Source: a virus
Taxonomy: Duplodnaviria; Caudoviricetes
DNA: 64,000 bases
Strand: one strand, 5' to 3'
Virus record (IMG/VR): IMGVR_UViG_3300009500_000015
Span: 2,998-66,997 of that record
Position 1 is the stretch's first letter; each line of letters opens with the position of its first letter. The translations under genes and the position numbers were made by a program. Below the pieces are notes generated by a model. The model was not told the origin of the DNA, made no database searches, and saw nothing but the letters and a program-made list of their open reading frames with translations. Shown here piece after piece: positions 2,213 to 25,248 of the stretch.

Positions 2213-2699
2213 AAAGCCACGGTCACACAAAGGGTTGTCCGGCAGCACGCCACTAAATATGGTGCTCTATGGTCCCGAATATTTGGCCAAGGTGGAGCAA
2301 TTAGCTTCGCTGCAGTTAAATATAAAGGAAATTGCCGCTCAGTCTAAAGTGCCTTACCGAACTTTCGCCAAGTGGATGAACGATTATCCCGAGCTAATTG
2401 AGTGCATAGAAAGAGGGCAGGCGGTAGCGGTGGCTAATTGTGCCCAAGTGGTGCTCAAGAAAGCATTAGGCCAACCTACAGGCGGCGATTACTTGGCGGC
2501 ACTACAGTACCTTAATCGGTTTGGCGGCAAGTGGGGCTTGAGCGCAAAGATACAACACGAGGTAAATATATCGGGAGGTGAAAACAGCGCGCCTAGCAGA
2601 TTGTCCGACGAGGTGAAAGAGCGAATAGCTGTCCAATATTTAAAAACATTGGGCTATGAGATAATCCCGCCAGCAAAACTTATTGATCAAAAAGATTGA
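2205..2699 (+). CDS. Putative terminase small subunit / HTH DNA-packaging protein
   Basis: HTH-like segment (IKEIAAQSKVPYRTFAKW..YPEL) followed by a helical region and A...YL.....W, typical of TerS-like proteins. Confidence 0.55.
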   Translation: MDKKPRSHKGLSGSTPLNMVLYGPEYLAKVEQLASLQLNIKEIAAQSKVPYRTFAKWMNDYPELIECIERGQAVAVANCAQVVLKKALGQPTGGDYLAALQYLNRFGGKWGLSAKIQHEVNISGGENSAPSRLSDEVKERIAVQYLKTLGYEIIPPAKLIDQKD

Positions 2700-3105
2700 A
2701 CAGAAATGATTGTAGAAAGTCATTGAAAGATTGGCTTTGGGAGAGCGTATACAACATTTGAAAGATTGAAAAAGGGAAGATCGTTGATGACAAGAGAAAG
2801 AGCAAGTTTACAAGACAGTAGACCTTGAAGGAACGAGCTATGCTCTGAGATTATGAATAAGACAATCGAACGAGTAACGGCACGAGATTGTAGATACCGC
2901 TTGAATGATCAAAAAATGGCGAAAGTCGATGGATACGAGAAAGAGCAAAATCGTCGGATAGTTTATCTCCGCTGAACGAGCAATGTATGTGGATCGTATA
3001 GCATTCAGGAACGAGCAAGAAGAAGTCGAGCGTAAAAGTTGCAAGAACGAGCAATATAACAAGATCGTCTAAAACCTCTGAACGAGTAAAGAAATTGGAA
3101 AATAA
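2690..3105 (+). repeat. Dual-motif ~35-nt array 2 (TIGR-like), about 12 units
   Basis: A motifs at 2690, 2725, 2760, 2796, 2831, 2868, 2903, 2939, 2974, 3009, 3045, 3080; B motifs at 2708, 2743, 2779, 2814, 2849, 2886, 2921, 2957, 2992, 3028, 3063. Confidence 0.9.
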
Positions 3106-3451
3106 GAATACCCGAACGTTACCAATCATCCACGAGCTGAAATGCAATGCGCGGTTTTATGAACACTTGCGCTTAAAGACAAAAACTTTTGAGGTTCGAA
3201 AGTTCGATAGAGACTATCGGATAAATGACATTCTTTTGATTCGCCCCTATGACAAAATTTCCAAGCTTTGTGCCAAAGGGCTAGAAGATGGGTGGGTGCT
3301 CCCAACAGTGAGCAACCCCTTCCCCGAAGATAACTTTTCTTATGGATGGGGCTATATGACTGCCAGCATAATGTACATTTTGACCCATGAGGATTTTGCT
3401 GACGGAATAAAAGAGGGATATTGCGTGCTGGGGCTTAAAGACCTTGGCTAA
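3095..3451 (+). CDS. ASCH/DUF3850-like protein
   Basis: IHELKC...FY......KTFEVRK.DRDYR..DILL at the N-terminus and GYCVLGL at the C-terminus; start codon uncertain (TTG). Confidence 0.75.
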   Translation: MENKNTRTLPIIHELKCNARFYEHLRLKTKTFEVRKFDRDYRINDILLIRPYDKISKLCAKGLEDGWVLPTVSNPFPEDNFSYGWGYMTASIMYILTHEDFADGIKEGYCVLGLKDLG

Positions 3452-4338
3452 TCTGGCTTAAGGATTGCGTCAATTTCAAAATTGAAAGCTAGTCCCAGAT
3501 AACGCGCAATAATTGCCGCATAGTAGAGCATGCCCCTGCCCCCATCAACCATACCGCTCGGATGGATGCCGTCCGATCTTCTCAAAAGAATCCCTTCCGG
3601 AATATGGAGCGGATTGGCTTTTGCCTCGCCATACCAAAAGTAATAGCGCATCGGAATTACCGATAAGCGCGGATTGTTTTTTTCTGCCACCACTTGCAAG
3701 AGAAAATTGTGGATGTTGTCCAATTGGGTGTCATACAGATTCTGTCCGTTAGGCAGTTCATGATAGCCAAACGGTGTTACTAGCACCACTTCCCGAATGT
3801 TTTGATTAGCCAGTCCGGTTGCCACCAGTCGGCCAAAATTGATACTGGTTTGTTCAAGCGTAAGTCCGCGCCCAACATCGTTGGTTCCAATTTCAATCAC
3901 CAGAACGGTCGGATTATATGTATTGATCGCTCCTTGCATCGTGTTGATCAGGTCGGCCGTAGTGGTGCCCCCAATGCCCGCCCCAAAGAACTGGCAGCCA
4001 GGGCGTTGGCCGGGCAAAATTTGCTGGATATATTCGCCCCAGCCAGGACCGCGCCCTTCTGGATCGAGATCATTGACCATATTGAACCCAAGCGCCGTGA
4101 CTGAATCGCCAACAAACAAAACTCTATCGCCCGGATAAATTTCAGGCATCCGGAGGGCGGCGCCAGTCGGATAATTCACGTTAGGCGCAAGTGCTAGATG
4201 CCCATGACCGGGCGGCAAGAATCGAGGCGCATGAGGCGGAATGAGCCCAGGATAGCGAATCAGATCGCCCGCCCTAGCGGCAACCGGTAGGCCGGCTAAA
4301 GGCATAAGGGAAGCTTTTAGGAAGTCTCGTCTATTCAT
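3448..4338 (-). CDS. SGNH/GDSL hydrolase with Tat signal peptide
   Basis: MNRRDFLK twin-arginine signal; blocks GDSVT, G.GG.TT, GTND and DGIHP; start moved to the ATG at 4338. Confidence 0.85.
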   Translation of the reverse strand: MNRRDFLKASLMPLAGLPVAARAGDLIRYPGLIPPHAPRFLPPGHGHLALAPNVNYPTGAALRMPEIYPGDRVLFVGDSVTALGFNMVNDLDPEGRGPGWGEYIQQILPGQRPGCQFFGAGIGGTTTADLINTMQGAINTYNPTVLVIEIGTNDVGRGLTLEQTSINFGRLVATGLANQNIREVVLVTPFGYHELPNGQNLYDTQLDNIHNFLLQVVAEKNNPRLSVIPMRYYFWYGEAKANPLHIPEGILLRRSDGIHPSGMVDGGRGMLYYAAIIARYLGLAFNFEIDAILKPD

Positions 4339-4349
4339 TTTGTTTCCTC

Positions 4350-4844
4350 TTATTGCAAAGGTAAATTTCGAGCAGTCGCATATTTCAACACTTGGGTAAA
4401 TATCGCGCTCGCTTGGCTTGGATAAGCGTCGGTAATTTGAGTGGAGGCAATTGAGGCCAATGCTTTTCGATCCTGGTAGGTCAAGGTCGGATCGGCAAGC
4501 AATAGGCAATAAAGAACCGCAATGGGGAAATTTGGTGCGTTTGGATCAGTAAGGCAATCGTGCTTAAAGCCCGCATAATCGGGTATCGGATAAGAGGTAA
4601 AATCAAACGTGTTTGCATCGCTTTCGACCAGTTGCTTTTGGGCAGCCGTAGCGGTGTTTGAGAATGTCAAACTGCTCGCACCAGCGTAAGGCAAAGTGAT
4701 TGAAAGCAAACCGTTAGGCGTCTCTTTCACAACAAAATCATAGGCCGGGCTAGTCTTTACTGGTTGGGAATAGACTTGTCCTAAAGCCGCATTTTGGGAC
4801 AGTGACAATAAAAGAACCAATATTGGGATTGATTTAGTGCACAT
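4350..4844 (-). CDS. Hypothetical exported protein
   Basis: Hydrophobic signal-like N-terminus (IPILVLLLSLSQNAALG). Confidence 0.6.
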   Translation of the reverse strand: MCTKSIPILVLLLSLSQNAALGQVYSQPVKTSPAYDFVVKETPNGLLSITLPYAGASSLTFSNTATAAQKQLVESDANTFDFTSYPIPDYAGFKHDCLTDPNAPNFPIAVLYCLLLADPTLTYQDRKALASIASTQITDAYPSQASAIFTQVLKYATARNLPLQ

Positions 4845-24020: not shown

Positions 24021-24192
24021 GCTTTATGTGCTCTGTTTTGATCTTGGTACAACGTGTACTGCCTAGCGCTACCGTAAGGCGAATCTCTTTTAGCGGCACG
24101 GGGCGCTTGCAAATGACACACTCATACCGCCCGTCGAGATATTCGACACACTCAATAATGGTTTTTAGGCGTCTAGACGCTTGGGATTTCAT
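24001..24192 (-). CDS. Small Zn-finger hypothetical protein
   Basis: YECVICKRP. Confidence 0.4.
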   Translation of the reverse strand: MKSQASRRLKTIIECVEYLDGRYECVICKRPVPLKEIRLTVALGSTRCTKIKTEHIKHDHDQH

Positions 24193-24511
24193 CTGCGGCG
24201 CTTAGATCGTCGTCCGCTAGATGCTTTTTTATGGCCGCTACCGCCTTATCGTTTGGCTCCGCTTCCGCATCAATCAGATCGGCTAAAGCTTCAGACTCGT
24301 CTTTTGTGAGCTTAATGCTTTCAGCCTCTTCCAATGAGTCGAAATTATGGACCCGGACTGTATCACCACTGGCGATACCATCAACAAAGCCCTCGTACTT
24401 TTGCGACTCCTTCGCCCAAGCTTTGAGCTCATCGACACACATCGGGACGACCTCCCCGCTTTTCTTGTTCTTTGTCCAATGGGCTATTCGTTCACTGAGG
24501 GGTTTCATCAA
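24173..24511 (-). CDS. Hypothetical acidic protein
   Basis: Coupled ORF. Confidence 0.5.
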   Translation of the reverse strand: MMKPLSERIAHWTKNKKSGEVVPMCVDELKAWAKESQKYEGFVDGIASGDTVRVHNFDSLEEAESIKLTKDESEALADLIDAEAEPNDKAVAAIKKHLADDDLSAADEIPSV

Positions 24512-24707
24512 TCTTGCTCCTTGTGTCTATTGTTTGGCATTTAAATTGCATTGTAAGCATTGCATCATGATGTTGAAATGGCACCTCTAGCAGCTCTAGC
24601 AGCTCTGGATTAAAGGGAACGAACTTCAAAGAAACTCTTTTGAAAAGTCCCTCCCCTTCAATCACCTCGGCGGTACGCGGCCTGGCTATCTCTTTCCTAC
24701 TAAACAT
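24492..24707 (-). CDS. Hypothetical protein, first gene downstream of array 4
   Basis: ATG just downstream of the array end on the minus strand. Confidence 0.45.
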   Translation of the reverse strand: MFSRKEIARPRTAEVIEGEGLFKRVSLKFVPFNPELLELLEVPFQHHDAMLTMQFKCQTIDTRSKIDETPQ

Positions 24708-24718
24708 TCAGCCGCATT

Positions 24719-25248
24719 CTACAGTCGGTCATATTTATTCACTCGGGCCTCTTCCACTATCATCTCGCTAATTCGTTCCGGCCGGTTCGACTATCTTCTG
24801 CTAATTGCTCACTCAACGTTGTTTTATTTGTCCGAGATCTTCATTCGATCCACAGTTTTCCACTATCATTGCACTTCGCTCAATCAGCGTTGTTTACGGT
24901 CATTCCAATAGTTCGATCTTTCCAGTTAGACTGTCAAAAATAGTTTCTCTTTCTTACAAGATATACATTCAGCACCATTCAATCTTTCCGTTTTTGTCTA
25001 CAGTCCCGTAACTTAAATCCCGCGCGAGCAGTAGATTACAATTATCGCCACTTCTACCAAAATAGCTAGACTAAATATCCAGCCCAATAGCGCACCGATC
25101 TGCTCAATCCGACTTTCTCTACTGTCTTTTGGTTCTTCTCGATCCATTCTCACAAACAATCCTTTTACTTTCTCGCTCCGTTGGGGTCTACAATCATAGG
25201 ACTTAGCTCATTCGAGTAAATGCCACACTCACCCTTGTTTTTTCGTTC
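24719..25248 (-). repeat. Dual-motif ~35-nt array 4 (TIGR-like), about 13 clear units plus a degenerate stretch (~25015-25100)
   Basis: On the + strand nnnTCnnTC / nnACnnTC motifs end at 24726, 24744, 24761, 24778, 24795, 24814, 24832, 24850, 24867, 24885, 24901, 24918, 24935, 24953, 24970, 24988, 25005, then 25109, 25126, 25144, 25161, 25178, 25195, 25213, 25230, 25248. Confidence 0.88.

Follow-up and report, generated by a model that had tools for sequence, protein, structure and literature searches.

How might a TIGR-Tas system hold its guide RNAs when the repeats of its arrays lack the boxes by which such guides are recognized? The question is raised by a virus (Caudoviricetes) of which we analysed 64,000 nucleotides, hereafter called the window (bases 2998-66997 of the 66,997-base IMG/VR record IMGVR_UViG_3300009500_000015, with an estimated completeness of 96%). 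The guides of TIGR-Tas systems have been defined, and are sought, by the fixed motifs of boxes C and D, and the array finder TIGRFinder seeds on perfect pairs of these boxes. The window contains a gene for a predicted nuclease-free Tas protein, tasA, and several repeat arrays that are unusual in that the cytosines of box C, and the base pair between box C and box D, have disappeared entirely. We favour, at somewhat better than even odds, the interpretation that this phage of roughly 67 kilobases (kb) carries a functional TIGR-TasA variant that has been re-specified.

The arrays were detected by a segmentation guided by a skeleton of four repeat positions (G1, A2, G5, and A or T at position 6), and the values reported at those four positions are somewhat inflated. 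The adenine that ends each repeat had no role in detection. The segmentation gave six blocks of short periodic units in the window, with 88 half-units in total. These blocks and the tasA gene are as follows.

384..524, + strand: array 1a, 8 degenerate half-units upstream of tasA; chain score 8.6 (highest score in shuffles, 7.1)
541..1488, + strand: tasA, predicted to encode a nuclease-free Tas of 315 amino acids with a coiled coil and a Nop domain, and with A242, K239, M235 and W265
1498..1580, + strand: array 1b, approximately 5 half-units between tasA and an HNH gene; chain score approximately 5, not significant alone
2690..3125, + strand: array 2, 25 half-units (approximately 12 guide units) between a terS-like and an ASCH-like gene; chain score 30.9
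20080..20410, + strand: array 3, 19 half-units in a gap without long open reading frames; chain score 22.9
about 24692..25005, - strand: array 4a, 18 half-units; chain score 41.9 jointly with array 4b
about 25095..25318, - strand: array 4b, 13 half-units; approximately 100 nucleotides of non-repeat sequence lie between 4a and 4b

The chain scores of the three large arrays (2, 3 and 4) all exceed the 7.1 that was the maximum in 20 shuffles. An exact two-unit pattern had 6 matches in the window (in array 2 at 2868 and 2939, in array 3 at 20115, 20150 and 20288, and in array 4a at 24927-24988) and none in 100 shuffles. Array 1a is marginal when taken alone, its main support being its position adjoining tasA. 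Arrays 1a, 1b and 2 are no more than 1.2 kb away from tasA and share its + strand. Arrays 3 and 4 sit 18-24 kb from tasA, in gaps of the early region that are free of long open reading frames, with array 4 on the opposite strand. In published and related loci the arrays mostly flank tas directly, whereas two of the three large arrays in the window are distant from tasA.

Two types of half-unit alternate almost perfectly. Type 1, the putative edge repeat, is a 10-mer, GAnnGAnnnA, followed by 8 nucleotides, and is 18 nucleotides long in 33 of 41 cases; type 2, the putative loop repeat, is a 9-mer, GAnnGTnnA, again followed by 8 nucleotides, with a length of 17 in 31 of 37. The alternation gives a 35-nucleotide period (a unit of 10 + 8 + 9 + 8), and roughly 40 such guide units are present in the phage. 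Over the 88 half-units A2 is invariant (88/88), G1 and G5 are each found in 83/88, and position 6 is A or T in 86/88, while the terminal A occurs in 39 of 41 type 1 and 34 of 37 type 2 repeats. The remaining repeat positions each carry less than 0.8 bit, and the eight-nucleotide variable segments are all distinct (78/78). These counts match a first-pass annotation of this DNA, made from the letters alone, which had held that only GA at positions 1-2, GA or GT at positions 5-6 and an A directly before each segment of approximately 8 variable nucleotides are conserved, and that this A is present in nearly every half-unit. G1, A2, G5 and the terminal A are common to both repeat types, as expected of edge and loop repeats held by a symmetric dimer, and both types are as a rule without a C preceding the terminal A. 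With two spacers per unit, alternating edge and loop repeats and a unit of 35 nucleotides, as against approximately 36 in dual-repeat TIGR-Tas, the system is a dual-repeat member of the TIGR-Tas family published in 2025. The palindromic stems that flank spacer pairs in stem-loop TIGR are not present in the window arrays.

A Pfam scan of the open reading frame at 541-1488 found no match above threshold, and the only match that Pfam and PHROGs give for tasA is to an IS110-C-like 'transposase'. The protein has the coiled-coil dimerization domain and the Nop domain of Tas proteins, and no nuclease domain was found in it. An AlphaFold2 model built with 33 homologs (predicted local distance difference test score 86, predicted template modelling score 0.81) has TasH and TasR as its best Foldseek matches (E 3e-6 to 6e-5, probability 1.00), with IS110-family recombinases next. 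Profile comparison by hhalign with SpTasH (sequence from NC_020844) gave a probability of 98.4%, and phmmer against PDB matched TaTasR (9mty, E 4e-5) and, weakly, TasH (E 0.08). Because it is homologous to Tas and has no nuclease domain, the protein is identified, by predicted fold and profile, as a TasA. It has more than 2,500 homologs, mostly of 270-290 residues and approximately 50% identity; the closest, P0002, is 61% identical, and all others are at most 55% identical. A tblastn search of cultured phage records with the Tas protein found no match. The suggestion in the first-pass annotation of a divergent clade with a snoRNA-like (small nucleolar RNA-like) box was partly right: this is a TIGR-Tas-like system in a small divergent subclade, but its repeats are not snoRNA-like, as discussed below.

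The register of the repeats can be read from related loci. Our sample contained 95 loci with Tas proteins 26-52% identical to the window protein, of which 72 non-duplicate loci were used for array statistics. In an unbiased lag-autocorrelation scan, strong arrays adjoined tas in most of these relatives, nearly all with a 36-nucleotide period. The consensus repeats of these arrays are 10-mers with 8 variable bases after each, examples being GAGCGAGCCA, GAGAGAACCA, GATCGAGACA, GAACGAGTCA and GAGAGTTCCA. The 72 loci have GAnnG(A/T)nCCA+8 arrays, in other words the same G1-A2-n-n-G5-(A/T)6 skeleton continued by n-C-C-A. The medians over these loci are 82% for pairing between positions 3 and 8 (3:8), 92% for C9 and 87% for A10, and G:C, A:T and T:A all occur at 3:8, showing true covariation. 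All relatives' arrays with a chain score of at least 8 are on the tas strand, except for a second array in each of L005 and L038 (and its duplicates). A 35-nucleotide period also occurs in four relatives (L010, L026, L060 and L070) and in an orphan array, L098, in all of which the C before the terminal A is kept in at least one repeat type.

Published repeats (Table S1, PMC12045711) read TG-CGAG-CCA and TG-AAAC-CCA for TaTasR, A-AG-CGAG-CCA and AG-ACAA-CCA for SpTasH, and AG-TGTA-CCn for FpTasA. The commonest edge repeat in the window, GAACGAGCAA, aligns with the A-AG-CGAG-CCA edge repeat of SpTasH and the TG-CGAG-CCA edge repeat of TaTasR. Read in this register, A2-n3 is box D and n8-C9-A10 box C; n3:n8 is the published pair between the two boxes and n4:n7 the extra pair of the edge repeat; and G1 is a fixed last base of a 9-nucleotide spacer, like the N8A spacers of SpTIGR. 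The invariant A of the window repeats corresponds to the published conserved adenine of box C, and GAnnGA to the published box D adenine together with a CGAG-type edge core. The spacers of 8-9 nucleotides described in the first-pass annotation correspond to the published 9-nucleotide spacer, whose last base does not vary (N8G here; N8A for SpTIGR).

In the window, CCA ends only one repeat of 78, and the arrays are, as had been noticed at first sight, without the published CCA and UG/AG boxes. The boxes had been given there as CCA and TG(A), which is correct for TasR (UG...CCA) but incomplete for TasH (AG...CCA, with N8A spacers) and for FpTasA (AG...CCN). A C precedes the terminal A in none of 41 edge repeats and in one of 37 loop repeats (1/78 in total), against 19% C in the spacers (binomial P 1.1e-6). 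The repeat ends observed include CAA, CTA, TGA, AGA and AAA. Box D is reduced to A followed by any base, so that each of the two boxes retains its adenine alone, and a box C (CCA or CCN) before and a box D (UG or AG) after each spacer are not found. Box D's second base has likewise lost its Watson-Crick pairing with the first base of box C, with 3:8 pairing at 41% in the edge repeat (41% in shuffles) and 54% in the loop repeat (52% in shuffles). Tests of the intra-repeat pairs 3:7, 3:8, 3:9, 4:8 and 4:9 in the window repeats found no excess. Complementarity at 4:7 in type 1 is marginally raised (61%, with 48% expected, p 0.03); we take type 1 for the edge repeat, and type 2 for the loop repeat, because this excess and the CGAG core fit published edge repeats.

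The exact C-less two-unit pattern had no match elsewhere in IMG/VR. A 36-nucleotide version of the C-less grammar gave at least 120 matches in that database; the dozen best-scoring loci that were inspected are coding tandem repeats (for example, Gly-rich with 18-nucleotide periods), and no Tas homolog was near the pattern in 120 loci among the matches listed. We found no description of a loss of the box C cytosines in the accessible portions of the TIGR-Tas literature searched, and neither the window protein nor its subclade motifs were found in the accessible portion of Table S1 of Faure et al. 2025. Divergence of the boxes is itself already published, as the accessible text of the Science paper on TIGR-Tas states that they 'could diverge' across TIGR arrays.

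Some of the related loci depart from the common boxes in other ways. The orphan array at L098:2548-3629 (IMGVR_UViG_3300042196_000194) has approximately 30 units with the layout 10+8+9+8 (35 nucleotides) and the repeats GAGCGAG(C/T)(T/C)A and GAGAGTTCA. Its edge repeats alternate TCA and CTA endings, a possible intermediate toward the loss of C9; no Tas homolog was detectable in this 34-kb fragment, which is 78% complete. L011, L044, L059, L069, L079 and L081 have G and not A as the last base of box C (CCG), A10 being at 0-32%, and the box C adenine is thus itself replaceable in some TasA lineages. L019:1200-1640, with a same-clade Tas (approximately 50% identity), has the repeats GTG-CGAG-CCA and GTG-AGAA-CCA, with a TasR-like UG box D. 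Within one protein clade, box D therefore switches among AG, AN and UG.

The window protein is unusual at a position associated with box C. Residue 242 is Lys in 118 of 120 aligned homologs and in 91/91 related loci, the two exceptions being the window protein (A) and P0002 (Q). K242 aligns with TaTasR K283 and SpTasH K267 and, through the spacing H299-R306-K310-K314-R318-R321 in the PlTasA sequence from Table S1, with PlTasA K310. According to the accessible text of the PlTasA structure paper, K310 'contacts nucleobases directly' in box C, and H299 stacks on the box C adenine. TasA keeps H231, which aligns with H299, as well as Arg R238. The helix that carries position 242 departs from the family at two more residues: K239 stands in place of Tyr, Trp or Phe, and M235 in place of the Arg of 117/120. 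At conserved columns, no other sequences of the 120 deviate as much as the window protein and P0002, which share the derived changes W134L, A137G, R186W and E190Y in addition to the change of K242; these changes are therefore inherited features of the lineage. At highly conserved columns, 71/81 are kept in TasA and 10/81 are changed.

The tyrosine and histidine Y289/H296 of SpTasH form the catalytic dyad for self-processing of the TIGR guide RNA (tigRNA) and are reported to be conserved in dual-repeat systems. This dyad is not conserved in the C-terminal loop of TasA. The Tyr column is occupied by W265 (in the family, Y in 104, F in 12 and W in 4 of 120), and the His column by Ser in the hhalign alignment, where a His lies within an insertion of 8 residues; the model has low confidence in this loop.

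That the cytosines and the lysine of the box-C-reading helix were lost together suggests co-adaptation of the guide handle and the protein. A further-reaching proposal, to which we would give a little less than an even chance, is that the guide handle was re-specified in a TasA lineage: cytosines in box C and the C/D pair would have become dispensable, or even counter-selected, and been replaced by G1, A2, G5, A/T6 and a single box C adenine, with K242 changed to A or Q, K239 newly gained and the Y/H dyad abandoned.

The interpretation that we favour at better than even odds, a functional variant with a re-specified handle, would work in the following way. The arrays would be transcribed on their GA-rich strand and yield tigRNAs of 35 nucleotides, each consisting of half an edge repeat, spacer A (8 variable nucleotides and a fixed G), the loop repeat GAnnGTnnA, spacer B (8 variable nucleotides and G) and half of the next edge repeat. 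A TasA dimer would hold each guide, with one protomer on the edge repeat and the other on the loop repeat, and both repeat types would keep the same conserved positions because each protomer binds one repeat. The terminal A would be the box C adenine, stacking on the Nop domain beside the first spacer base (H231 is kept), and A2 would be box D's first base. Neither the cytosines of box C nor the Watson-Crick pair between the boxes would be required any longer, and C would be avoided before the terminal A; the loss of the box-C-reading lysine (K242A), accompanied by K239, M235 and further changes in that helix, would be the corresponding change in the protein. Recognition would then rest on G1, A2, G5, A/T6 and the terminal A. 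Guide maturation probably proceeds without the Y/H self-processing dyad, given the Trp and displaced His of this protein, and a different RNase may be needed for it. Since TasA has no nuclease domain, its complex most likely acts by binding DNA targets of 18 base pairs, 9 on each strand, and blocking transcription, as do other TasA proteins, and by this analogy TasA is probably an RNA-guided DNA binder or repressor. The accessible part of 10.64898/2026.09.09.750476 describes TasA proteins as RNA-guided repressors.

The main rival is that the system is decaying or inactive, the Tas having lost RNA-reading and processing residues and the arrays being drifting remnants of GAnnG(A/T)nCCA arrays. 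We consider this unlikely. In its favour, the lag-35 autocorrelation in the window arrays is only 0.43-0.49 compared with 0.6-0.75 in the relatives, the protein has K242A, R235M and Y265W and is changed at 10 of 81 conserved columns, and no targets were found in the phage genome. Decay should strike all repeat positions alike, however, whereas G1, A2, G5, A/T6 and the terminal A stay approximately 92-100% conserved over 88 half-units and the 17/18-nucleotide spacing is retained. Because these five positions are kept while their neighbours are near random and every spacer is unique, we attribute the pattern to selection on a reduced motif and not to decay or recent duplication. Nor does drift away from an ancestral C predict that C directly preceding the terminal A should be depleted so far under the background (1/78, P 1e-6). 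The reading frame of tasA is intact with most of its conserved columns, and the derived substitutions shared with P0002 were inherited in a surviving lineage. Several results nevertheless weigh against a functional, re-specified variant. A self-target search of the phage genome, with both half-site orders and up to 2 mismatches, gave 2 matches as compared with 1-9 in re-paired controls, none of them beyond chance, and promoter and terminator scans flanking the arrays gave counts at chance level. The two arrays beside tasA are the weakest ones. The 10 changed columns of 81 would also fit relaxed constraint, the link between the K242 change and the CC loss rests on a single genome, and the accessible text on the PlTasA structure does not specify which base of box C is touched by K310.

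The first-pass annotation had proposed a snoRNA-like grammar, in which GAnnGA resembles box C (RUGAUGA) with sheared G.A pairs in a k-turn and marks a separate, undescribed clade. In a processed edge repeat, GA 1-2 might in principle lie opposite GA 5-6 and form tandem G.A pairs with it, and the Nop domain of Tas is homologous to Nop5/Nop56/58. Against this, RUGAUGA has one base between its GA pairs and the window repeats have two; the loop repeat has GT and not GA at positions 5-6; and the repeats, GA-nn-GA or GA-nn-GT, have no CUGA partner. The same skeleton is followed by a normal n-C-C-A with covarying 3:8 in 72 TasA loci, and because it also occurs in arrays with an ordinary CCA it is not a snoRNA-like box. 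An Rfam scan of the array RNA found no match at the gathering score, the array RNA folds worse than 189 of 200 shuffles (z +1.6), and published Tas complexes contain neither L7Ae nor a k-turn. We therefore regard the k-turn reading as very improbable. Even less credible is a role of the repeats as DNA, with arrays of protein-binding sites 17-18 base pairs apart instead of guide RNAs. The arrays are indeed scattered through intergenic regions of the early and packaging modules, but they are homologous unit for unit with the TIGR arrays adjoining tas in 72 relatives, the strand of the motif tracks the local gene orientation, and 78 different spacers out of 78 would be unexpected for iterons or operators.

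A functional, re-specified variant, which remains our preferred interpretation, would stand closest in anatomy to the same-clade dual-repeat TIGR-TasA systems of uncultured phages (for example, L035, L046/L051, L080 and L038, with Tas proteins approximately 43-52% identical). Those systems have a nuclease-free Tas of approximately 270-290 residues and arrays on the tas strand, and share with the window the two alternating repeat types with G1-A2-n-n-G5-(A/T)6 and a terminal A, and segments of 8 nucleotides with a fixed G. Proteins of this kind appear in the accessible portion of Table S1 of Faure et al. 2025. They differ in having C-C-A ends (C9 median 92%), a covarying 3:8, mostly a 36-nucleotide period and K242, whereas the window has essentially no C9, no 3:8 pairing, a 9-mer loop repeat (35 nucleotides), A242, and five or six arrays over 25 kb.

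Other known systems share fewer features with the window. SpTIGR-TasH (Salicola phage CGphi29; PDB 9W03, 9W04 and 21KL) is likewise phage-borne, with an edge repeat resembling that of the window, N8 plus one fixed base, and a homologous Nop domain, but its N-terminal HNH, CCA box C, AG box D, Y289/H296 dyad and 36-nucleotide guides are not conserved here. FpTIGR-TasA (Flavonifractor plautii) and TaTIGR-TasR (PDB 9MTY) have dual-spacer guides held by a Tas dimer via box C and box D. FpTasA is nuclease-free like the window TasA, and its CCN box C is evidence that positions within a box can become relaxed. There the third base of box C (A) is relaxed and CC is kept; in the window phage it is the reverse, and the A alone remains. 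The snoRNA-protein complexes of the box C/D kind (Nop5/Nop56/58, L7Ae, fibrillarin) resemble TasA in their homologous Nop domain, two guides per RNA and short-box anchors; the window system differs from them in having no RUGAUGA or CUGA, no evidence of a k-turn and no Rfam match, and in its likely target, which is DNA and not RNA. The IS110-family bridge RNA recombinases (IS621, ISCro4) share the fold of the C-terminal domain with TasA (Foldseek E approximately 1e-3), whereas the window system has no RuvC/DEDD domain, many-unit arrays instead of one bridge RNA, and no element ends.

If the proposal is correct, a Tas protein may work with a handle of a few bases, without CC and without a C/D pair, and these arrays would define the minimal RNA features that a Tas protein needs. 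K242 would be a specific protein position that may set box C specificity, and the phage would offer a natural pair of orthogonal handle and protein variant for engineering. The window system would also be orthogonal to TIGR systems of the ordinary CCA type carried by hosts or by co-infecting phages. The 20,096 tas loci include only 6,685 for which TIGRFinder reported arrays. Judging from its algorithm as described (perfect fixed box pairs, 4-nucleotide gaps), C-less arrays are probably missed by fixed-box array finders, and some tas loci without annotated arrays would then have arrays that motif-based tools have passed over.

Two of the neighbouring genes deserve mention. The HNH gene at 1571-2212 (+) encodes a stand-alone endonuclease and lies between tasA and the terS-like gene at 2205-2699 (PHROG 309). 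We found no support for a split TasH, since the alignment of this gene to the SpTasH HNH domain (pairwise E 0.03) is limited to the generic HNH motif; it is more simply read as a terminase-associated HNH. Array 2 is immediately followed by a gene at 3095-3451 (+) that has a match to PHROG 986 'RNA-binding protein' (ASCH-like), with an E value of 8e-18. Given that TasA is without the Y/H dyad, the product of this gene could be named as a candidate guide-maturation factor, but this is pure speculation.

At 63850-64000 a hexanucleotide repeat, (TGACCN)n, runs up to the end of the record, with a lag-36 autocorrelation of 0.69. It was rejected as a TIGR array, and its minus strand would encode a Gly-His/Gly-Gln repeat.

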